A stretch of 64,000 bases of DNA, from contig JAWOEX010000028.1 in NCBI GenBank assembly GCA_046482545.1, positions 128,001-192,000 on the forward strand, written 5' to 3'. Made by a program: the position numbers and the translations under genes. Origin of the DNA: Candidatus Thorarchaeota archaeon. GTDB lineage: Archaea > Asgardarchaeota > Thorarchaeia > Thorarchaeales > Thorarchaeaceae. The notes beneath the pieces are model-generated. The model did not search any database and had not been told where the DNA came from. It worked only from the letters and a program-made list of their open reading frames with translations. Every line of letters begins with the position of its first letter. Positions within the stretch are counted from its first letter, which is position 1. This document shows positions 9 through 60,595 of this stretch, one piece after another.

Positions 9-779
9 TTGTCTGAAATTTTGGACGAAAACAGTGAGATAGAATACAGAATCGAAGCTGCTTTCATACGAGAGTGGAATTACACAGTCGAGGGAGATCA
101 CATTCGAACTCATAATGGGACCCTTTTCTATGAAGCAAAAGTGGATAATGAAATATCAATCACTATTGATATCGTTGAAATAGATGAACGAATCACCCTT
201 CAGGTACATTATGAAGCGAACACCCCCACCGGATACTACATAGACACCTCATATATAGTGGAACTCAATCCTGAAACTGGTTATTGTATCATTAAGAACG
301 GTCCACTGGAGGGTTTTTATGGCCGTTTGAGTCTTTTCTTCAATTATGAATATCCAGATATCGGTATGTCCATATCCTCGATTGCCGAAAAGGAAATCGT
401 TGTGACAGGTTTCGGTGGTAAGAGAGGGATTGAAATAATGGAAGAATACCAGACTGCTCAACGATACAATTGCTCTTATAACGACACTGTTGATGGTGAG
501 GTTACACATGACAGGTACTATGAAGAAGATACTTCATTACTTTGCAGGGGTTTTGGTGCAATTAGTGATTTGATACTTCTTGGTATGGCGAATATCTCCT
601 ACGCACATGGATTCATGTACCTTGAAGACACAAATATCGAACTCGGAGATCCTTTCTGGGTTCCCTTTGATCCAGGAGCTTATGCTCTGCCCATTCTGGG
701 TGTTGTTGGTATTGGAATCTTCGTGGTTTTCTATATTCTGATCTACAAAGCACAGAGAAGGCAAGACCATCATTCGTGA
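9..779 (+). CDS. Extracellular protein with C-terminal membrane anchor (probably 5'-truncated by the window edge)
   Basis: Acidic, Tyr-rich ORF ending in a hydrophobic helix (ALPILGVVGIGIFVVFYILIY) and a basic tail. Confidence 0.65.
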   Translation: MSEILDENSEIEYRIEAAFIREWNYTVEGDHIRTHNGTLFYEAKVDNEISITIDIVEIDERITLQVHYEANTPTGYYIDTSYIVELNPETGYCIIKNGPLEGFYGRLSLFFNYEYPDIGMSISSIAEKEIVVTGFGGKRGIEIMEEYQTAQRYNCSYNDTVDGEVTHDRYYEEDTSLLCRGFGAISDLILLGMANISYAHGFMYLEDTNIELGDPFWVPFDPGAYALPILGVVGIGIFVVFYILIYKAQRRQDHHS

Positions 780-46705: not shown

Positions 46706-48031
46706 TTATTCTAGAGTTTGCTCACCCATTACATTCGAGCTTCCGCGTTCAAATTGCAGTCGAAACAACGTCCCAACTACTTGTTCATCCTCAACAACGT
46801 CTTGAGCTTCCATTGTTATATCGCAAATCTCGGCAAGACCTCGGATGAGAATGATACCAAGACCTACTCCCGGCGCAGACCGACTAGAAAGCGAATCAGG
46901 GTTGTTGAGAAAATCTTGAACCTCAGTAGGTAGGCCCCCAGCTCTATCTAGAATCTCTACCATCACATGTTTCTTCGATTTTCTGAATGCTCTCACTGTG
47001 AGGCTTTTTGTTCCATGTTTGAATGCATTGTCGAAGATATTCCAAAACATCTCTTTGACTAACTTACACGAGAGAATGTACACATTTTCTTCAATCTCGA
47101 CTGTTATCCTCTCAGGTTCGATATCATACTCACGTATAACTCTCTCAGAGACTCCTTCTAGAATTCCTGCAAGATTCAGGGGGGTCTCCATAGCTTGTAC
47201 ACGTGTTACTGTTGCAGTTAAGTACCGAATTTCCTCCAGAAAATCCATCATGTCCTTGACAACCTCAGATGCCATTTCAAGCCACATTTCATGATCAGTC
47301 TCTGAGGTAATAGCTTGATCAATAGCTCCATTAAGATTGCCCGCATAATTACGAATATCATGATTTAGAATGCTCCCCAGCAATTGAGAGATCTGATGTT
47401 GAGCACTCAAATTTTCAGCCGTGGTCTTGATAAAGAATGATAAGAGACCCGAACCAGTTGCCATGACACTAATTGATAAAAGCAGGACGTGAACACTCAA
47501 TAGGTTCAACAATGAAAACGGTATAAAAAGTAGTGTTGAAACGCCCCAAAGGACAAATCCAACATATGCAGTCCAAAAATCTAAGCTTTCCGCATCGTTA
47601 TCTCTTCTAAATTGTTCTGCTGAATACCAACATGATAAGGCTGAAGGCACCCCGACAACTGTATAGGCAATATCATAGGAAACATCAAGTACAATTCCAA
47701 CGCCTACTATGGCAAGTCCAATTCCTACGGCTAGAATGTACATCAACAAGCTACTGCCTTCTCTCTGATGTTTATTCGCTCCATCAAATAGAAAGATGGA
47801 TCCTAGTAGAATACCTGAGGTAGCTAAGCTATCGGTTATTTCAAGACCAGCAGTACCTATCATAATACTGAGGGCAGTTGTAATACTGTAAACCATCCAG
47901 CCTGCTGCCCATAGTTTGTAGCGAACTCCGGTTGAATATCTATACAGCCCATATGATACTAATGCGATGAAAGCAACAAGGCCTGTAAACGATATCACCA
48001 CTGCAGGCTCAAAAACAGGAACAGTCTGCAA
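46706..48031 (-). CDS. Histidine kinase with N-terminal seven-TM sensor region
   Basis: LNHDIRN H-box, NIFDNAFKHG, DRAGG, GVGLG; start uncertain (TTG at 48031, or the longer ORF to 48187). Confidence 0.85.
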   Translation of the reverse strand: MQTVPVFEPAVVISFTGLVAFIALVSYGLYRYSTGVRYKLWAAGWMVYSITTALSIMIGTAGLEITDSLATSGILLGSIFLFDGANKHQREGSSLLMYILAVGIGLAIVGVGIVLDVSYDIAYTVVGVPSALSCWYSAEQFRRDNDAESLDFWTAYVGFVLWGVSTLLFIPFSLLNLLSVHVLLLSISVMATGSGLLSFFIKTTAENLSAQHQISQLLGSILNHDIRNYAGNLNGAIDQAITSETDHEMWLEMASEVVKDMMDFLEEIRYLTATVTRVQAMETPLNLAGILEGVSERVIREYDIEPERITVEIEENVYILSCKLVKEMFWNIFDNAFKHGTKSLTVRAFRKSKKHVMVEILDRAGGLPTEVQDFLNNPDSLSSRSAPGVGLGIILIRGLAEICDITMEAQDVVEDEQVVGTLFRLQFERGSSNVMGEQTLE

Positions 48032-48568
48032 GAAATAATCATCTCCGGAATTGCTTTTTTTTAATGTAATAATTGAATAAAAAGGCTTACACTTTTTTAG
48101 TTGCGATTGTGTTATTCTTCCATATGTACTTTTTGGGGAGGTAGGCTCTGTGTGAAAAGTCAACAAGGAAGTAAGGAAACGGAGCAATCAAATTACAAGA
48201 TGCCTGATTTCTAACTTCATTTCCCTGTTTTGCGATCAGTCACATTCATCGCTAAAGACTTTTCACACAGCACCGGGGAGGTATGAACCAAACATAAATT
48301 TCTGCAGGTCATTTGGAATAGGCAAGGTGATAGTACTACTATCACAAGATGACTGTTGTAACAAAATTTGGAATCGTAATTGATAGTTGCTATGAAGAAA
48401 CTCAGGGGTTAGATTCTCTATCAGGGGGCACCAGACCCTCGACCTTTCCGCTAGATTATCGCCTTCTCTTTCTACCACCAGGGTAACAAAATGAAATTGA
48501 AGTGTCGAAAAGAAAACTACTTAGGAACCATCAGAAGGAAAGAATTCACCAACAAAAGGTTCTCAAGG

Positions 48569-50619: not shown

Positions 50620-51012
50620 TTGGTCGATCTCAGAATGACATTCCTGATTGATCCGCCGCTCCTCGTTGGACTAGCCATGTTATCTCAGTATCTAGGGTCG
50701 AAGATTACATCCGGGAATAGCCGAAAAATTGGCCAGCTTCTCGCCCTCTTCAGCTTGTGTACTATCATGTTTACAAGCAGCTCGTTGTATCTGAATATGT
50801 GGTATATGGACTGGTTCTGGTGCCCATTCCAACCTCTTGTTGCGTCCGGCAAAGACCTTATGATCAATTCTGGGATTTTTTCTTTCGAATCCGTTAACAC
50901 TGCAGGTCTTATTGATGCACTTGCAGCGTTTCAAATCATACTCTATCCTGTGTGGATATACCTTGGTTATAGGATATACTACTGGCTATTCCCCTCTTCA
51001 AAGGGTTCATAA
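50620..51012 (+). CDS. Hypothetical membrane protein
   Basis: IDPPLL...; three hydrophobic segments. Confidence 0.7.
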   Translation: MVDLRMTFLIDPPLLVGLAMLSQYLGSKITSGNSRKIGQLLALFSLCTIMFTSSSLYLNMWYMDWFWCPFQPLVASGKDLMINSGIFSFESVNTAGLIDALAAFQIILYPVWIYLGYRIYYWLFPSSKGS

Positions 51013-51043: not shown

Positions 51044-52480
51044 CTACTCCTCTTCTTCCTCATCTTCTCCTAATCGTTTGCCCGGCTTGAATCGTGCCTT
51101 CTCTCTGTCCACTGAGAGCCGACTCGGGTCAGGTGTAGATAAATCATGCCCAAGTTTTCCTTCTTTGATTCCCTGAGCGTGCTCACTCGGCCACGCTTCA
51201 CCTTCTTCGGGGGCTGCCTCCAGAATATCTTCGTCCACTTCGCCCCGCTCAAAGGTTTCACCTTCTACTTTTGCTTGCTCAATTATGCGTTCGAGTCGTT
51301 CTTCACGCAGATAATAGAGGATAGTGAACATGGAGACAATCGGGAATGCCATCAGCTTTGCAACATCTCTGAATATGAAAGTAGCATAGTTCACAGCAGC
51401 ATTCCAATCGGCAAAAAACCACTGGCCCAGTATGGAGCCAGCATCGCTTGTAACAGCAATTATGCTATCCACGAAGAAGAAACCACTTGCAAGAAAGAAT
51501 GTAAACAGCGGGCCAAAATCACGTAGGCGGGAACGAGATTCCTCAACAGTCTCTGTGACGGTTCGACCAATGCCGCTCATAGCATAAATCAAGAAGAAGA
51601 ACGCCATGCCAATATCCACTACTGACATTGTTGGTGCTCCAGTTCTTCGCAAAATGTTGAAAAGAAAGTATCCGCCATAGACGGCAACGAATAGAGTCAG
51701 GAGAGATATATTCAATGCCGCTCCTCTTCCACCATATTTTAGAAATGCAGCAAGGACTGCGAGTCCAAAGAGTCCAAAGAATCCATAGGCAATCAGTATG
51801 AAATTGTACTGGATCTGTATGTTTTCCATGGCCATCGGAAACAATGTCTCGATGAAAGTACCAAGTCCCATGAAATCATTGGGAATCAGATAAAGGGCTG
51901 CTAATGCTTCAACCGCGATGAGACCCAAACCAATAAGCATGATGAGGAAGCTCCCAATCCCCATTACCAGGCTACCCTTCTTTGGTTCACTTATGGTGGC
52001 CAATCTCAAGCTAGTACGGGCTGAAAGATATGCCTGAAAAGCAATCCACCCTACCCAGCAGAAAACAGCAAAGAACAGAAGTGCTAGGGGTCCCAAGAAC
52101 AAGGAAAGGAAAACTGAAATGAAGAACGACACTGAAATCCAAGCTACACCTTTCAATTCTGTAGCTCGTCCTCTTGCCCTTCGAGTTATCCATAGACTAT
52201 CCAAACCTAATCCCGTGAACAAAGAACCAAGCATGAAGTAGATAGTACCAGTAGCACCTAGATAGACAAATACGTTCACCAAGATAGCTTCAATTGCTGT
52301 TCCTACGAAATATGTGAGTAAGAACGATACAAAGAAAGACAGGAAAATGCTGGTTACGAAAACAATCAAGTACGCTACGTATCTCCGTGTTTTGAAGAAT
52401 GTTTTCAGGCCTGTTATGATGCCAGAGAGAATAGGAATCTGAATTAGGAACTCCTCCGTTTTGTTTTCATGAATACCCAT
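51044..52480 (-). CDS. Polytopic membrane protein with acidic cytoplasmic tail
   Basis: About 10 TM segments; charged low-complexity C-terminus. Confidence 0.8.
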   Translation of the reverse strand: MGIHENKTEEFLIQIPILSGIITGLKTFFKTRRYVAYLIVFVTSIFLSFFVSFLLTYFVGTAIEAILVNVFVYLGATGTIYFMLGSLFTGLGLDSLWITRRARGRATELKGVAWISVSFFISVFLSLFLGPLALLFFAVFCWVGWIAFQAYLSARTSLRLATISEPKKGSLVMGIGSFLIMLIGLGLIAVEALAALYLIPNDFMGLGTFIETLFPMAMENIQIQYNFILIAYGFFGLFGLAVLAAFLKYGGRGAALNISLLTLFVAVYGGYFLFNILRRTGAPTMSVVDIGMAFFFLIYAMSGIGRTVTETVEESRSRLRDFGPLFTFFLASGFFFVDSIIAVTSDAGSILGQWFFADWNAAVNYATFIFRDVAKLMAFPIVSMFTILYYLREERLERIIEQAKVEGETFERGEVDEDILEAAPEEGEAWPSEHAQGIKEGKLGHDLSTPDPSRLSVDREKARFKPGKRLGEDEEEEE

Positions 52481-52614: not shown

Positions 52615-54048
52615 ATGGAGGGAATGGTACTGGGCAGCAAAATCCTGTACGTAGGCCAGAACGAATCTCTCCGTTCAACGGTAGAGAATAGACTCGGAAA
52701 GCCACCATTCAACTTTGAAATCATTCAAACACCCTCGATAGAAAGTCTAGATTCCCTTTTGGACAATGATGAGTATGTTGGCGTGATTACTGATAGCCCC
52801 GTATCTAATTGCCGCCTTGTGCAGGATATTTGCGATATGTGTCAAGGGCGTGAAATATGTGCCGTTGTAATCTTGATCGCAAATGACAATGAGAAAAGAA
52901 ATCAGCAAATCCCTGTTACCGAACCGAACAGCCTATTCATCATTACAAATCAAAGCAAGTTGTGTGATGCGGCGTCCAAAGCAACAGACATAATCATCAG
53001 TTACATCATGCCAGAAAAAGGCCTACCTCTACATACGGGATTGCCAAGGAATTATTTCAGAATTGTTTTCGAAAATGCGCGGGTCGGCATTACTTTGGTT
53101 GGTCTTGATGACAGGATTATTGAAGTCAATCCTGAATTCCAGCAAATGGTTGGCTATTCCGAAGAAGAGCTAAAAGACATGACCATCACTGATATCATCC
53201 ATCCTGACGATATCAGTAAAGATTACAATCTTCTAGAACGCATGCTTTCTGAAAACGAAGACAGATATCAGATGGAAAGACGATATATTGCGAAAGATGG
53301 AGAGATAGTGTGGGCTAATCTAACCGTAACAGTGGTAAGGGATGACAATGGAAATCCCTTGTGGACACTTGGAATTGTACAAGATATAACCAAACAGAAA
53401 AAGGCACAACAGGAACTAAGAAAGCAAAAAGAGGAGCTTAGCGATTTCGCCCACGAAATGAGCCATGATTTGTCAAATGGATTGCACCAAGTCAGTGGAT
53501 ATCTGGATCTGTACCATGAGAATCATGATAAGGAGATGTACGAGAGAGCACAACGCATTTTGTTAAACATGGGAAGCCTGCTGAAATATAGTGTAGAACT
53601 CGCGGACGCCGGACAGATTGTTCAGAAGGAATCAGATGTTGATTTGAACGAGGTGGTAATGGACGTAGCCACCACAATTATACCAAGATGCATCGAGTAC
53701 ACACAGGACGAACTTCCATCGGTTCCTGCAGATAGAACGAAATTGCTGCAAGTGTTTCGAAATATCTTCGACAATGCGCTAGAGCATGGTAAACCAGACA
53801 ACATTGAAGTCAAAAAGAGAATGACGGAAGATGGAATGCATCTGCAGATAGTGAATGACGGTGAGTCCATACCCTCGGAACATGCTTCCAATCTGTTCAA
53901 GCGAGGTTTCACTACCAGACCCTCAAGTACTGGATTCGGCCTTACCATAACCAAGAAGATTGTTAAAGCACACGGCTGGGAAATCTCCCTAGCATCTACT
54001 AATCCGCCCATATTCGATATTTTTATACCGCGGAATTTTCTTGATTAG
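52615..54048 (+). CDS. Cytoplasmic PAS-domain histidine kinase with degenerate N-terminal receiver-like domain
   Basis: PAS (VNPEFQQMVGYSEEEL...IIHPDD...KDG...QDIT), SHDL H-box, NIFDNALEHG, GFTT...TGFGL. Confidence 0.92.
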   Translation: MEGMVLGSKILYVGQNESLRSTVENRLGKPPFNFEIIQTPSIESLDSLLDNDEYVGVITDSPVSNCRLVQDICDMCQGREICAVVILIANDNEKRNQQIPVTEPNSLFIITNQSKLCDAASKATDIIISYIMPEKGLPLHTGLPRNYFRIVFENARVGITLVGLDDRIIEVNPEFQQMVGYSEEELKDMTITDIIHPDDISKDYNLLERMLSENEDRYQMERRYIAKDGEIVWANLTVTVVRDDNGNPLWTLGIVQDITKQKKAQQELRKQKEELSDFAHEMSHDLSNGLHQVSGYLDLYHENHDKEMYERAQRILLNMGSLLKYSVELADAGQIVQKESDVDLNEVVMDVATTIIPRCIEYTQDELPSVPADRTKLLQVFRNIFDNALEHGKPDNIEVKKRMTEDGMHLQIVNDGESIPSEHASNLFKRGFTTRPSSTGFGLTITKKIVKAHGWEISLASTNPPIFDIFIPRNFLD

Positions 54049-54159: not shown

Positions 54160-54558
54160 TTGATTATCTTGAAGGTTGTTGTAATTGGTGAAACGAATAG
54201 AGATCTCGTTGAAATCAGCGATTTGTTGAAGAAGCAAGAAACAGATGGTGAAAGCGAAGATTCCGCAACTCAGTGGGCAGGAGAGATATCCAAGGCCCGC
54301 ATCTTGAATGAGGATAATCCTGACTTCGAGGAAAAGCTAACCGATGCAAATCCCAATGTCACAATCATAGTGTTAGACTCCGAGAAGGAATACGTCATGA
54401 AATCGAAACAATTAGTCAAAAACATCAGGAATAAGATTCCCGGGGTTATCGTAGTTGGTCTTGTGAATGAGGTGGAAGGAGACGACTCGCTTGCAATTGA
54501 TAGGATTGAATCGCTTCTTGGCGTAACATGTTATGAATTCCCAAGCCCGGAAGATTGA
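54160..54558 (+). CDS. Degenerate small-GTPase-like protein lacking the P-loop
   Basis: LKVVVIG start, IIVLDS, VVGLVNE at the G4 position, IESLLGVTCYEF; no GxxxxGKT or DxxG. Confidence 0.55.
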   Translation: MIILKVVVIGETNRDLVEISDLLKKQETDGESEDSATQWAGEISKARILNEDNPDFEEKLTDANPNVTIIVLDSEKEYVMKSKQLVKNIRNKIPGVIVVGLVNEVEGDDSLAIDRIESLLGVTCYEFPSPED

Positions 54559-54624
54559 AGAGGTATCATCGAATTCTGTTTATTAGTCACAGTTCCCGTA
54601 ATCAGCGAGAACTCGTGATTCACA

Positions 54625-55686
54625 ATGGCATCACCGACACTTGTCGCGCTACTCTTCAGCTCTGCGGCCATTAGCCTGATTGCAATGGTTGTTATCTTTC
54701 GGTCTTGGTGGAAGAACCGATTGCTCACCTCTTTTCTGTATGTGCTGGCCATTGCTTGTTTTGCGGGTATGGCTCTTGACATGTACTTGGATCAGGTCTT
54801 CATGCCATTTCGGAACTGGAGTCTTAACATCGGTGGCGAAACAATTTGGGTGTCCAACCTCCTCCTCGCCCTTCTTCTTGTAGGGGGATTCATCTTCTGG
54901 TACTTTGCGGTGCTCTATTCACAGTACGAGTCTCTTCCGCCACGCTCAAATGCTATTGCATTCCTTGCTGGCGCAGCTTTGCTAGCTGAACTTGAAGCTC
55001 AGAGTTGGTCCGCCCTTTTCCCGCTCATAATCGAAGCGATTGCGTTCGGAACGTTCATAGTCGAGATTATTCGATATGGTAGACGAGTGAGTCTGGCAAG
55101 CCATCATGATAACAAGAGACAGATACATCTTCATTTCTCAGGTTTTCTCGTGTGGCTTATGGCCGGTCCGTTGGGAGTTATTCTCGGAAATACTCCGGGT
55201 GTGCCGAGGTGGATTGGAGATTTGTGGCCGATACCCTACGGAGTTGGCTTACTTATGGTAGCCTACTCGGTCGCTGTGAATCCGCGACTATTAATACTCA
55301 GCGAAGCCAAACCGCTGGATTTACTCATACTTGACAAGAATGGAAATCTAGTAGTCGCGCAGAGATTCGAGCAATATCCACAGAGCGTGGATTCTGAGCT
55401 GATGGGTTCAGCGTTGTCGGGCGTCCTCAGTCTGATGCAGGACATGCTTGCTTCCAAGAAGGATTTGGAACGGATTGACCATGGAGATGTGAAAATCATT
55501 CTGGAGCATGGCATTCTGACTACATTCATTTTAGTGGCTACGCTTGAAACACCCGGCCTTCGACAATCTCTCCGCAACCTCCTCATGGAGTTCGAAACAA
55601 ACTACCGTGATGAGCTGTTGGAAGATACCGGCCTAGTTAGTTCATATGATGAGTTCAAGGATAGAACCAAGCGAGTATTGCTCTGA
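54625..55686 (+). CDS. Seven-TM membrane protein with C-terminal longin-like domain
   Basis: Seven hydrophobic segments, then LLILDKNGNLVV...DSELMGSALSGV...IDHGDVKIILEHG...LRQSL...FETNY. Confidence 0.7.
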   Translation: MASPTLVALLFSSAAISLIAMVVIFRSWWKNRLLTSFLYVLAIACFAGMALDMYLDQVFMPFRNWSLNIGGETIWVSNLLLALLLVGGFIFWYFAVLYSQYESLPPRSNAIAFLAGAALLAELEAQSWSALFPLIIEAIAFGTFIVEIIRYGRRVSLASHHDNKRQIHLHFSGFLVWLMAGPLGVILGNTPGVPRWIGDLWPIPYGVGLLMVAYSVAVNPRLLILSEAKPLDLLILDKNGNLVVAQRFEQYPQSVDSELMGSALSGVLSLMQDMLASKKDLERIDHGDVKIILEHGILTTFILVATLETPGLRQSLRNLLMEFETNYRDELLEDTGLVSSYDEFKDRTKRVLL

Positions 55687-55721: not shown

Positions 55722-56786
55722 ATGCCTAGACATGTCGCTTGTAGAGGTGTTGAAATGAGAAACTCGGCCACTAATGTTCTTTTCATTTGGGATGTTCGCG
55801 AAGAACTTCGGGATTACATCACCGAAGGCCTTGCAGATATGAAAGGTATCAATCTCATCTTCCCCGGCAGCTCGAACGAGGAGGATTATATGGAATACGC
55901 TCCTGATGTGGATATCATCGTAGGATGGAGGCCAAGCGAAAATCTACTTGAGCGTGCCCAGAAACTCCGCCTTTACATCAATCCGGGGTCTGGCGTACAG
56001 CACCTGCTAGATAAGTTCCGTTCCCTCGACCCGTCTCGAGACATCACATTGATCAACGGTCACGGAAATTCCTATTTCACCGCTCAGCATGCAGTGGCTC
56101 TTTTGTTAGCACTGACAAACAAGGTTATCCCCCATCACAATTGGATGGCACAGGGCAAGTGGCGAATGGGCGATGAAGAAGCTCGGTCAACACCTCTACG
56201 CGAAAGACATGTCGGATTGTTGGGTTACGGAGCAGTAAACAGTAAGGTACATCGATTCCTCAGCGGTTTCAGGCTAAGCTTCTCTGTCCTCAAGACAAGC
56301 TGGGAAGAAGAAACCGATTTGCCGACGCCAGTTACGAGATATACGCCTTCTAATCTTCATGATTTTCTCGAAGTGACCGATATCCTCATCATAGCATTCC
56401 CTCTTACAGATAAGACTGAGGGGCTTATTGGAGATGATGAACTCGAACTTCTTGGAAACCAAGGGGTCTTGGTAAATATGTCGCGGGGGGATGTTGTTGA
56501 CGAAGGGGCACTATATCGAGCCCTAGACAATGGGATCGTACGAGGTGCTGCAATAGATGTCTGGTATGATTACAAACCAGAACCTGATGAAGAGGGGCGT
56601 AAGTTCCCCTATGACGAAGAGCTACACCATTTCCATAAGCTAGAGAATATCGTGCTTTCACCGCATCGGGGCGCATCGCCCATGAACGACCTGAAAAGGT
56701 GGAACGAAGTGATAGAAAACATTCGAAGATTCTCAGTAGACCGAGATGATTATCTCAATATTGTGGATATAAAGCGTGGATACTAA
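55722..56786 (+). CDS. D-isomer-specific 2-hydroxyacid dehydrogenase family
   Basis: GLLGYGAV, PLTDKTEGLIG, VNMSRGDVVDE, IDVW, SPHRG. Confidence 0.9.
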   Translation: MPRHVACRGVEMRNSATNVLFIWDVREELRDYITEGLADMKGINLIFPGSSNEEDYMEYAPDVDIIVGWRPSENLLERAQKLRLYINPGSGVQHLLDKFRSLDPSRDITLINGHGNSYFTAQHAVALLLALTNKVIPHHNWMAQGKWRMGDEEARSTPLRERHVGLLGYGAVNSKVHRFLSGFRLSFSVLKTSWEEETDLPTPVTRYTPSNLHDFLEVTDILIIAFPLTDKTEGLIGDDELELLGNQGVLVNMSRGDVVDEGALYRALDNGIVRGAAIDVWYDYKPEPDEEGRKFPYDEELHHFHKLENIVLSPHRGASPMNDLKRWNEVIENIRRFSVDRDDYLNIVDIKRGY

Positions 56787-56837: not shown

Positions 56838-56964
56838 ACGCCAGAAACCTACCTTATCAGAGAACAAAGAGTCTCCCTGATGAGATACTCATTCGTCAGG
56901 GAATACCGGCATTGTGAGTCCGGAGTCGCTGAGTGTCTCTTTCCACTGAGGGTAGAATTGGTGT
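56838..56964 (+). promoter_or_regulatory. Putative structured 5' leader RNA upstream of the surface-protein genes
   Basis: Four nested helices closing a junction with two hairpins; ends about 27 nt before a GGAGGAGG RBS. Confidence 0.45.
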
Positions 56965-57004
56965 TTCAAGACAACAATCAAAAGAAAATTGGAGGAGGAG
57001 ATGT

Positions 57005-60000
57005 ATGAGATCCCGCGTATTCGCTATGTCAATCGTAATAGTACTCATGATACAACCATTCATTATTATCGGCACCATTATGCAACCAGAGTCACGGCCT
57101 GTTATTCAAGAAAAATCAACTAGCTCGCAGGAACCCGGAACTCGCCTTGAGCCAGACGAACACACGGCCCATGTGCCCATCCTCATTGATGAGGAGAGCG
57201 ATTTCGAAGCACAGGGATGGCCGGGGTCAGGAACCGAGAGCAGTCCGTATGTTATATCAGATTTAAACATTACATACAATGTTGATCAAGTTCTAATTAG
57301 AGTATACAATACCGACTCGTATTTTGTTATCAAGGATTGTTATCTTGGGCAATTGTCGGCTCGCAGGGCTATACACCTCGAGAATGTAACAAATGCAGAC
57401 ATAGAATTCGTAACTGTATCTTCAGCGGGAGATGGTATCAATGCAGTCAATGCGAACGCTTCAACTATTTCTCACGTTGATGCCCATGCAGAATCTTCTT
57501 TCAGCATGGAAATTACTCAGTCCGCGAATATTGAAATAGAATCAAACACCCTTTCAGGATACGGTCTATACCTCAGAGATAGCAGCGGTATTCATGCACA
57601 CGACAACGAGATTATCGACACGACTGGTTTGGGGGCACTTGTACTCAGATCAAATGGGACAATATTCCAGTCAAACGCAATAAAAGACACAACCGGTTAT
57701 GGGCTCCAGCTAGATAATAGCAGCCTGTGTGACATTGACGCAAATCATATCGAGAATACGGGATTTGATGGAATTTACTATAGACTCTCAGAGAATGTGA
57801 CAATAGTAGACAATGAAATTATCGAATCTGGATCTTCTGGAATTAATTTTGTGAGCTATGAATGGACAAGTATAATTGGAAACATCATTAATAACAGCAA
57901 TGCCTTTCCTATTGAGACTTGGGACCCCACTAATGGAATTATCTCAGAAAATGAATTGCTAAACAGCCCAACCCACTCAGGTATTGCTTTTCATTCATCC
58001 GCAGAGAACTTCACCATCACCGAAAACTACATCGAAAACTTTTGGAATGGCGTGTATTTCGTGAGTGGTTCTGAAATCGAAGTTTCTAGGAATACCATCA
58101 TTGATGTTGACAATTACTTTATCTACCACCAATCTATACCAAATGGAAGCGTAGTCAACAATACTTGTGTTAATTCGGCTAGGTCAGGAATCTATGCTTT
58201 TAATTCTCCAGGAACAAATATTTCTGGAAACGTGATAAATAATACTGGAAATCGGGCCATTTACACAAATTCTGCTAATCTTACCATAAGCAGCAATACC
58301 ATGTATGATAACGCTGTCGGAATACAAACGCTCTTCGACGCAGACAATATTGAGACCCATGATAATCAAATCGAACTGGCTGATGTGGGAATAAGAGTAT
58401 CAGGAGATGATGCGACGGTTGATTCCAATGATATCTACAACTGTCAAATTGGAATAGAGATTGCAGGTAGCGCTAATGAAGCCGAAATAAGCAACAATCA
58501 AATCATTGATGTTGAGGATAAAGGAATCTACGTAACAAATGCGAATACATCACTTGTTGCAAATACCATAGCAAATGCCTATACAGGTGTCTTCGTTGAG
58601 GATGCATCTAGCCCCACCCTTGAGAATAACACTATTCACAGTTCAACAATCGGGATTCACATCGTCACATCCTCTGGAGGTTTATTCGAAAACAACAATA
58701 TGACAGACTGTGGGTTATATTTCCCCAGTGGGCAATCAATAGCCAATCTAAATCATACCTTCATTGGGAATCATGTAAATGCAAAGCCACTGTTCTATGC
58801 TCTATCTGAATCAGGGCTTACTCTGGACGGAAATGAATACGGTCAAATAATCTTGGTGAACTGCTCAGATTCCTCCGTAAATGGGGGAGAGTTCACACGG
58901 TCAACGTCATCTTTTCAGGTATATCATTCAGAAAGGGTTGAGATTTCAAGTATCCATGTTGTGGATCAATGGCATGCTATGTCTATCTACGAATCAGTAA
59001 ACCTAACGATTGCAGACTCTGTGTTCGAAGGCACATCGGACAATGATGCCATCACGGCAAACTATGCAGATGGGTTTACGGCAGATAATGTCACCCTTAC
59101 TGATATCAACGGAATCGGGATATACGTCCAGAACGCAAATCCGTCTGTCGTCAAAAATAGTCATTTTGAGAATATTGCTGATTCAGCAGTGAGCTTCTAT
59201 GCTGTCGACGATGGAGTGATACAAGGCAATGAGCTCATTAACGCAACAAGAGGTTTGCATCTTCAATACACCATCAACACACTGATTGACGACAATCATC
59301 TCATGTGGAATACATATGGTATCCATTCAAGCTTGGAGTCTGATAATAATAATGCAACCTTCAACAATATCCATGACAATCAGTACGGAATAAGAATGGA
59401 TGATTGTTGGTCTTGGTTCATATACAATAACAGCATACGCTGGAATTCTGAAGGACTATACATTACGAATACCAATAACGACCAATGGATATACAACAAT
59501 ACATTTGCACTAAACACGGTCCATAACGGCTATGACACTGGCGATGACGATTGGGATGATCGCGTTGATGGAGGAAATTATTGGAGCGATTATTCCGGTT
59601 CTGGCGTTTACAATATTCCCGGTGGCATATCGATGGATCGCTGGCCCTACAAATACATCGTAACTGAGCCAGAGATCAACAATCCAAAGGATGTTTGGTA
59701 TGCTGAAGGGTCTGAAGGGAATGAGATAGTCTGGTTCCCAATTGATGATAATCTCAGAGATTGGACTTTTGAGATAGGTGATTACGTACGGGATTCAGGA
59801 CCTTGGAATTTCGATAATATAACTGTCAATATTGATGGTCTGAACTACGGAGTACACCAAGCCAAAATCACGGTAAGAGATCTCGATGGTAACAATGTCA
59901 CAGATACAGTCATGATTCACGTCTATGATGATACCCCCCCTCAAATCAACCACCTCCCCAATCGGATTGCATTTGTTGATGGAACAGATCAAACGCTCTC

Positions 60001-60595
60001 ATATGAGGTATCTGATCTCAATCCTGCCACCTATCATGTATATGTGGATGATAGTGAGTTCGAAGAAGGTAGCTGGACATCAGGAACTCTTGAAGTGGAT
60101 ATTGATGGCTTCGAAGCTGGGATTCATGAATTCCGTATCGTGATTAAAGATGACGATGGAAACGAAGCTACTGATACTGTGGAGGTAAGATTCATTGATG
60201 ACGATCAGGGGCCAACTATCGATAGCCCACCGGACATTATGTACGTTCAGGATACAACCGGGAACTCTATCGTTTGGTCGCCTTCTGATGAGTATCCAGA
60301 TCATTACATCATTACCAGCAACGATTCAGTCCTAGTGGAGGGTTCTTGGGGAGGCTCCCGAATAGCACTCAATGTGGATGGTCTTGATGTTGGTACTCAT
60401 GAGTTCACCTTAACGGTCTTCGATGGAAGTGGTTTGACTGCTTCAGATTCTGTGAATGTGACAGTTCTACCCACGCAGCCAACATCACCACAACAACCGG
60501 TTGACCTTCTAACGATTTTAATCATTGGAGCTGCAATAGGAGGGGCAGTTCTTGTGATTGCGGGTGTTCTTTACTATAGGAGGGAAAAGCAATGA
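57005..60595 (+). CDS. Large surface glycoprotein: right-handed beta-helix (NosD/PbH1) repeats, Ig-like repeats, C-terminal TM
   Basis: Signal peptide, GWPGSGT...PYVI, many N-x-I...GI repeats, GNYWSDY, C-terminal TM followed by RREK; RBS at 56991-56998. Confidence 0.9.
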   Translation: MRSRVFAMSIVIVLMIQPFIIIGTIMQPESRPVIQEKSTSSQEPGTRLEPDEHTAHVPILIDEESDFEAQGWPGSGTESSPYVISDLNITYNVDQVLIRVYNTDSYFVIKDCYLGQLSARRAIHLENVTNADIEFVTVSSAGDGINAVNANASTISHVDAHAESSFSMEITQSANIEIESNTLSGYGLYLRDSSGIHAHDNEIIDTTGLGALVLRSNGTIFQSNAIKDTTGYGLQLDNSSLCDIDANHIENTGFDGIYYRLSENVTIVDNEIIESGSSGINFVSYEWTSIIGNIINNSNAFPIETWDPTNGIISENELLNSPTHSGIAFHSSAENFTITENYIENFWNGVYFVSGSEIEVSRNTIIDVDNYFIYHQSIPNGSVVNNTCVNSARSGIYAFNSPGTNISGNVINNTGNRAIYTNSANLTISSNTMYDNAVGIQTLFDADNIETHDNQIELADVGIRVSGDDATVDSNDIYNCQIGIEIAGSANEAEISNNQIIDVEDKGIYVTNANTSLVANTIANAYTGVFVEDASSPTLENNTIHSSTIGIHIVTSSGGLFENNNMTDCGLYFPSGQSIANLNHTFIGNHVNAKPLFYALSESGLTLDGNEYGQIILVNCSDSSVNGGEFTRSTSSFQVYHSERVEISSIHVVDQWHAMSIYESVNLTIADSVFEGTSDNDAITANYADGFTADNVTLTDINGIGIYVQNANPSVVKNSHFENIADSAVSFYAVDDGVIQGNELINATRGLHLQYTINTLIDDNHLMWNTYGIHSSLESDNNNATFNNIHDNQYGIRMDDCWSWFIYNNSIRWNSEGLYITNTNNDQWIYNNTFALNTVHNGYDTGDDDWDDRVDGGNYWSDYSGSGVYNIPGGISMDRWPYKYIVTEPEINNPKDVWYAEGSEGNEIVWFPIDDNLRDWTFEIGDYVRDSGPWNFDNITVNIDGLNYGVHQAKITVRDLDGNNVTDTVMIHVYDDTPPQINHLPNRIAFVDGTDQTLSYEVSDLNPATYHVYVDDSEFEEGSWTSGTLEVDIDGFEAGIHEFRIVIKDDDGNEATDTVEVRFIDDDQGPTIDSPPDIMYVQDTTGNSIVWSPSDEYPDHYIITSNDSVLVEGSWGGSRIALNVDGLDVGTHEFTLTVFDGSGLTASDSVNVTVLPTQPTSPQQPVDLLTILIIGAAIGGAVLVIAGVLYYRREKQ

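Follow-up and report, generated by a model that had tools for sequence, protein, structure and literature searches.

Does a seven-helix membrane protein encoded beside a small-GTPase-like protein in an archaeal genome form a signalling pair of the receptor-G protein kind? Such a pair had been proposed in the initial annotation of this locus, in which a membrane sensor would signal through a C-terminal longin-type domain to the neighbouring (pseudo)GTPase. The window, the whole stretch of 64,000 nucleotides that was analysed, lies on contig C9 of genome G000 (completeness 98.9%) and is that of an Asgard archaeon of the Thorarchaeota, as homologues of both genes are found in Candidatus Thorarchaeota and close relatives. 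The open reading frames, the 66-bp gap between the pseudo-GTPase gene and the receptor gene, and a PAS histidine kinase gene preceding both on the same strand are all located where they had been placed (Table 1); a gap of 111 bp separates the kinase gene from the pseudo-GTPase gene. As called, the pseudo-GTPase frame runs from 54160 to 54558 (+) and codes for 132 aa from a TTG, and the start at 54169 is likelier because homologues begin at residue 4.

The 353-aa protein and the small protein themselves have no match in Pfam. Both are real proteins kept by selection, with dN/dS values of 0.02–0.12 for the receptor gene in comparisons inside the genus and mostly 0.05–0.34 for the pseudo-GTPase in informative pairs; the latter values, which resemble those of the kinase and exceed those of the receptor, indicate a maintained protein under purifying selection. 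A promoter and terminator scan with bacterial-type models gave results at chance level. Contigs of salt-lake metatranscriptomes agree with the region at 99% or more and in one case bridge the gap between pseudo-GTPase and receptor, but the contigs also include intergenic DNA and so do not prove an operon or a transcript. The divergently oriented membrane-protein gene at 51044–52480 codes for an unannotated protein that is 58–65% conserved across genera, and is adjoined by a gene for a small membrane protein without Pfam match (50620–51012, +). On the other side of the locus, the gene at 56933–60595 (+) encodes a beta-helix/PKD surface protein of 1220 aa, anchored at its C-terminus, which occurs as tandem copies downstream of the receptor gene in many genera.

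Table 1. Genes and protein domains of the locus, in window coordinates except where residues are given
Feature	Position	Strand	Description
Multi-helix membrane protein	51044..52480	-	478 aa; divergently oriented; no Pfam match
Soluble PAS histidine kinase	52615..54048	+	PAS, HisKA and HATPase_c; N-terminal alpha/beta domain diverged
Pseudo-GTPase	54169..54558	+	129 aa; Arf/Rag-like G domain reduced to strands 1–6
7TM-longin fusion gene (receptor)	54625..55686	+	353 aa; single copy in the window genome
Seven-helix membrane domain, residues 4–218	54634..55278	+	AlphaFold model, VIA structure search, K+R loop counts
Receptor TM helices (AlphaFold)	residues 4–31, 34–58, 76–100, 108–123, 131–158, 161–189, 202–218		end at AVNP
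Longin-type domain, predicted cytoplasmic, residues ~228–353	55306..55683	+	element order, AP-2 sigma chain match, profile matches
Longin elements (AlphaFold; E, strand; H, helix)	residues E230–237, E242–247, H257–275, E289–295, E299–305, H310–326, H338–352		model
D-2-hydroxyacid dehydrogenase	55722..56786	+	most consistent neighbour of the receptor gene

The seven hydrophobic helices ending in AVNP that had been read from the sequence are confirmed by hydropathy, which gives seven segments matching the helices of an AlphaFold model built on an 18-sequence alignment (mean pLDDT 72, pTM 0.63). When this model was submitted to the VIA structure search, microbial rhodopsins and GPCRs were returned together, at Z 12–15 and an rmsd of about 4 across about 200 residues (3.6–4.4 for Z 13–15). 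Matches included a microbial rhodopsin (Z 15.1, rmsd 3.9, 204 aligned; in a second search Z 15.4, rmsd 3.9, 210 aligned), the GPCR MAS1 (Z 14.6, rmsd 3.9, 210 aligned) and MRGPRD (Z 14.3), with Z values of 13–15 being close to what mostly helical models attain through their common arrangement. As judged from the model, the resemblance is one of shared arrangement and proves neither descent nor function. Loops 1, 5 and 6 have on average 2.8, 5.2 and 0.06 lysines plus arginines and the C-tail has 1.8, and by the positive-inside rule this distribution predicts an N-terminus outside and a tail in the cytoplasm, the same seven-helix topology as that of GPCRs and microbial rhodopsins. Unlike those proteins, with which its identity is 4–14%, the receptor does not have the retinal lysine: none of 18 orthologues has a lysine in helix 7 (positions 200–217), so the receptor is not a rhodopsin. 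The class A GPCR motifs DRY and NPxxY are also absent across the orthologue alignment, the invariant NP of the family being located past helix 7, and the output domain is a fused longin in place of a heterotrimeric G protein.

Prokaryotic HisKA_7TM kinases and 7TMR-DISM proteins likewise join a seven-helix input to a cytoplasmic output domain. The receptor has a similar architecture, but its output is a longin and membership of its membrane domain in these families was not supported, as the HisKA_7TM and 7TMR-DISM Pfam profiles gave zero matches up to E 1 among the 18 members tested; Pfam profiles of transporter families gave no match either. The window also codes for a second kinase (46706–48187, −) whose N-terminal membrane domain has multiple helices, about seven, and no detectable homology to that of the receptor. 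Among the conserved positions of the receptor, the invariant acidic residues D52, D56, E122 and E137 fall in the predicted outer half and, on the model, suggest a pocket for a cationic ligand, while invariant sites as a whole are only slightly enriched in that half (32/122 vs 17/97). No longer version of the receptor, fused to further domains, turned up when such proteins were sought, a result of little weight.

The C-terminal domain also proved to be of the longin type, as had been claimed. In the AlphaFold model, residues 230–352 are arranged as strand-strand-helix-strand-strand-helix-helix, the canonical longin order with the exception of the third strand, which is unmodelled and would fall at 278–286 within a stretch of low confidence (273–286). 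Foldseek matched the tail to the AP-2 sigma chain (E 0.026, prob 1.00, 123 columns), and homologues of the receptor gave weak Pfam matches to Fuz_longin_1 (5/19, best E 0.0015), Intu_longin_1 (2/19) and Sybindin (1/19, E 0.0007). A profile of the receptor longin matched TRAPPC1 at E 0.3 and retrieved about 17 other longin-like proteins of the window genome, including those that form part of longin-GTPase fusions. PDB sequence searches with the longin and pseudo-GTPase profiles returned nothing significant; a single-sequence fold of the longin alone reached a pLDDT of 46, and the VIA lists for the whole model were filled with 7TM proteins. Conserved features of the receptor longins are the small residues of helix 1 and a DHGD hairpin. 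In the GAP longins FLCN, NPRL2 and SMCR8, a GP motif precedes strand 2 (PMC12290439). This motif is not present in any of the 18 orthologues, whose DKNG-like loop between strands 1 and 2 has a conserved G that is never followed by P. On the features tested, the receptor falls outside the rhodopsins, the class A GPCRs, the HisKA_7TM sensors and the GAP longins, and nonetheless may work like a receptor.

The fold and the conserved helix 1 align the receptor longin with the eukaryotic longin platforms TRAPPC1/C4, Mon1-Ccz1, Fuzzy-Inturned and the SRX domain of SRalpha (PMC3747258), and the Fuz_longin_1, Intu_longin_1 and Sybindin matches add a weak profile kinship. The receptor longin, a putative platform, differs from them in being fused to an integral seven-helix domain and in having no partner longin gene nearby. 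Longins have likewise been shuffled onto signalling modules in the NPRL2-like longin fusions of Asgard archaea (bioRxiv 10.1101/2020.10.19.343400; PMC10933270). By its sequence, the 353-aa protein is one of a family of 7TM-longin fusions that extends across the Asgard archaea and is represented by Atlas clusters of 65–313 members from Loki- and Thorarchaeota and by 15 diverged paralogues from the 14 loci examined, in which the membrane domains are very diverged and the longin is conserved. A literature search found no published description of 7TM-longin fusions (figures and tables of Liu et al. aside), and the main texts of Liu et al. and Tran et al., figures and supplements aside, mention neither such a fusion nor a shortened pseudo-GTPase; a 2026 preprint names '7TM proteins' among previously reported Asgard families without detail. 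The longins closest to the orthologue group from outside it end proteins of 720–770 aa in other Asgard families (L022, L024, L025, L028, L029), which share the DHGD hairpin and have N-terminal parts that look membrane-embedded. In a genome of the same order, 7TM-longin genes form a tandem pair (L096:4190-6365); the Thorarchaeota loci examined carry single copies. Finally, a 655-aa longin-GTPase-linker-longin-winged-helix protein of the window genome (G000:C9:267645-269612) is a candidate longin partner, and its orthologue lies on the receptor gene's contig, 14–85 kb away, in at least 9 genomes.

The small protein had been described as an Arf/Rab-like GTPase without G1 and G3. The motif losses hold and extend further: of G1 (GxxxxGK[ST]) the first G alone is kept, the GKT being replaced in 11/11 homologues; the glycine of G3 (DxxG) is lost; G4 (NKxD) is down to its N; and the chain stops after strand 6, with no G5, no helix 5 and no longin. 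Descent from a GTPase holds as well. HHalign aligned the protein to the G domain of its parent over 129 columns at 97.8% and 29% identity, and in a profile search it matched the parent gene (G000:C20:74563-75438) at E 3.6e-12. This parent, a protein of 291 aa in which a longin is fused to a GTPase and the Arf-like motifs are intact, is of the type described by Liu et al. and Tran et al. (PMC10933270), and the pseudo-GTPase profile matches one such gene in nearly every genome of the family. An Atlas model of the pseudo-GTPase is similar to a Thorarchaeota Arf-like cluster (TM 0.75). A receiver-type fold was considered and rejected, with HHalign giving 4% to the genome's receivers against 97.8% for the parent G domain, no PF00072 match and no lysine ahead of the final proline. 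The Rab part of the description did not stand, a Rab origin being disfavoured (AU p 0.045, with a long-branch caveat); the sequence comparisons and the tree mark the protein as Arf/Rag-like in origin. Under the scheme of PMC5593906 it is predicted to be a class i, nucleotide-free pseudoGTPase. It resembles p190RhoGAP pG1/pG2, CENP-M and the AAGAB psGD (PMC5593906, PMC12490416) in having degraded G motifs kept by selection, and differs from them in being archaeal, stand-alone, shorter (no helix 5), recent and confined to one genus.

In the tree, the pseudo-GTPase was grouped with degenerating duplicates of the parent gene from the same genus (support 97/97), and taking it out of this group was opposed at an AU p of about 0.04; the stem branch is long (2.3–2.4), leaving its exact position uncertain, so that placement among partly degenerate parent duplicates has moderate support. 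The duplicates form a series from intact genes through forms cut after strand 6 and forms with a dead P-loop to the minimal domain of the window, which has no longin. Closest in the tree is a genus-level longin-GTPase duplicate that has a dead P-loop, is cut after strand 6 and continues into some 470 aa of helical repeats (G000:C17:298-2508, L108; orthologue G002:C176, L109). Further diverged copies are present in two other genomes (G001:C84, L110:3422-4186; G079:C281, L120:245-2362), one of which stops right after strand 6 and one of which lies inside a 705-aa ORF. The longin-GTPase gene seems to give rise to degenerate copies again and again. On an unrelated metagenome contig, a 118-aa stand-alone pseudo-GTPase (P0033, L055:1516-1872) that is possibly of independent origin has the same end after strand 6 and adjoins a gene for an FAD oxidoreductase.

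The two genes have very different distributions. Orthologues of the receptor occur in 24/86 family genomes and 12/16 genera; the pseudo-GTPase occurs in 3/86, all of one genus, and a search of 1.8 billion proteins for it returned a single close cluster. Linkage is therefore confined to one genus and to 3 of the 24 receptor-carrying genomes, an outcome that the initial annotation had named as counting against its proposal. The N-terminal domain of the kinase was found in the same 3 genomes as the pseudo-GTPase (61 searched). By eye this domain resembles a decayed receiver (HHalign to receivers, 1%); the window kinase has 477 aa and one PAS domain, its relatives 591–595 aa and two. Every locus seen in the genus has one and the same gene order (kinase, pseudo-GTPase, receptor, dehydrogenase, beta-helix protein), which is kept across saturated synonymous distances. 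Outside the genus the genes upstream of the receptor vary, and in another genus the counterpart of the membrane gene at 51044–52480 lies directly upstream of it (L018, L069, L066), suggesting that kinase and pseudo-GTPase were inserted between the two. As the kinase N-terminal domain and the pseudo-GTPase are restricted to the genus alike, they look like one insertion, and the simplest history suggested by these comparisons is that both entered as one cassette before an older receptor gene. By the distribution of its N-terminal domain, the kinase is tied to the pseudo-GTPase no less closely than either gene is to the receptor.

What, then, might the receptor do? Because no nucleotide pocket is left, the pseudo-GTPase could not serve as the substrate of a GEF, and a GPCR-like coupling of the receptor to its neighbour is unlikely. 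The genus-only linkage also speaks against that part of the initial proposal; of the broader path from membrane sensor through longin to (pseudo)GTPase, both domain assignments stand and conserved linkage does not. The explanation that we hold to be probable, if not strongly so, is that the receptor longin docks an intact GTPase encoded elsewhere and that the pseudo-GTPase is a dispensable adaptor without a switch. The receptor would be a membrane sensor or anchor, sensing a ligand outside or simply anchoring, and the outer-half pocket formed by the four acidic residues together with aromatic residues would bind a small, probably cationic ligand. Its longin would pair with a second longin, either its own kind or one of the ~17 others, including those of longin-GTPase fusions, and the pair would give an intact small GTPase a platform at the membrane; longin dimers are known as platforms for small GTPases, which dock through helix 1 (PMC3747258). 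The pseudo-GTPase, having arrived together with the PAS kinase, would act as an adaptor or decoy, and the receptor would not need it. Against this explanation stand the identity of the receptor's steadiest neighbour, a metabolic enzyme, the gene order always kept in the genus, and two residue changes in longin helix 1 that are described below. A bolder version, in which 7TM-longins are GPCR-fold, ligand-gated receptors controlling small GTPases and the pseudo-GTPase of the genus is an adaptor or inhibitor linking such a receptor to the histidine kinase, seems decidedly improbable.

The constant order, shared strand and 66-bp gap in the genus could also mean that the receptor longin binds the pseudo-GTPase there and relays signals to or from the PAS kinase, thereby joining a 7TM sensor to two-component signalling. 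The sole hint beyond adjacency comes from K272 and E273, where helix 1 of the longin, the GTPase-docking helix, ends: otherwise invariant, they are replaced (K272Q/E273D) in the two aligned sequences from the genus, a change compatible with a new partner of the longin. There are precedents in the AAGAB pseudoGTPase, which binds AP1/AP2 sigma subunits as a chaperone (PMC12490416), and in Asgard longin fusions with two-component domains (bioRxiv 10.1101/2020.10.19.343400). AAGAB, however, uses the strand 6-helix 5 loop, which is mostly missing here; 21/24 receptor genomes do without the pseudo-GTPase; unrelated GNAT, radical SAM and beta-helix genes are equally syntenic inside the genus; and the longin of the window genus has diverged from outsiders no faster than the membrane part (identity 0.54 vs 0.53). 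A complex prediction for longin and pseudo-GTPase scored 0.06, which weighs neither for nor against binding. Such a relay is on the whole unlikely. Doubtful, too, is the proposal that the pseudo-GTPase serves the kinase or decoys partners of its parent, the receptor being an unrelated neighbour whose longin is a docking tail with no GTPase client. The genus-only pattern common to the kinase N-terminal domain and the pseudo-GTPase agrees with it, as does the location, remote from the switches, of the half of the pseudo-GTPase that is still parent-like (strands 4 to 6, with about 40% identity). Of 14 paralogous loci no more than 2 have a GTPase gene within about 5 kb, and of 12 orthologous loci outside the genus 1 has one within 10 kb; other longins of the window genome tail large surface proteins and winged-helix proteins. 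Yet in most of the cases studied, dimers of longin or roadblock domains serve as platforms for GTPases (PMC3747258). The genome encodes about 18 small GTPases, and gene distance says little about partners in trans. A dehydrogenase gene follows the receptor gene at 12/21 orthologous loci, and the wall of a translocation path could be formed by the buried acidic residues, as would suit a transporter or passive anchor tied to the 2-hydroxyacid dehydrogenase. This we regard as very improbable, given the 9 orthologous loci without the dehydrogenase, the lack of any transporter-family match, and paralogues that combine a diverged membrane domain with a conserved longin in the manner of sensor families.

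The coupling proposed for this locus is not supported by conservation, and the locus itself is no demonstration of receptor-to-G-protein signalling. The architecture does exist and merits testing. In place of a link to a GTPase, the locus offers a single-copy receptor with a conserved candidate pocket. The gradation that leads from an intact longin-GTPase, by way of half-dead copies, down to the minimal dead domain provides a clear example of the birth of an archaeal pseudo-enzyme. Beyond this locus, the 7TM-longin fusion is a candidate answer, open to direct test, to two questions: by what path 7TM receptors gained control of GTPases, and how the small GTPases of Asgard archaea get to membranes in the absence of lipid anchors (PMC10933270).
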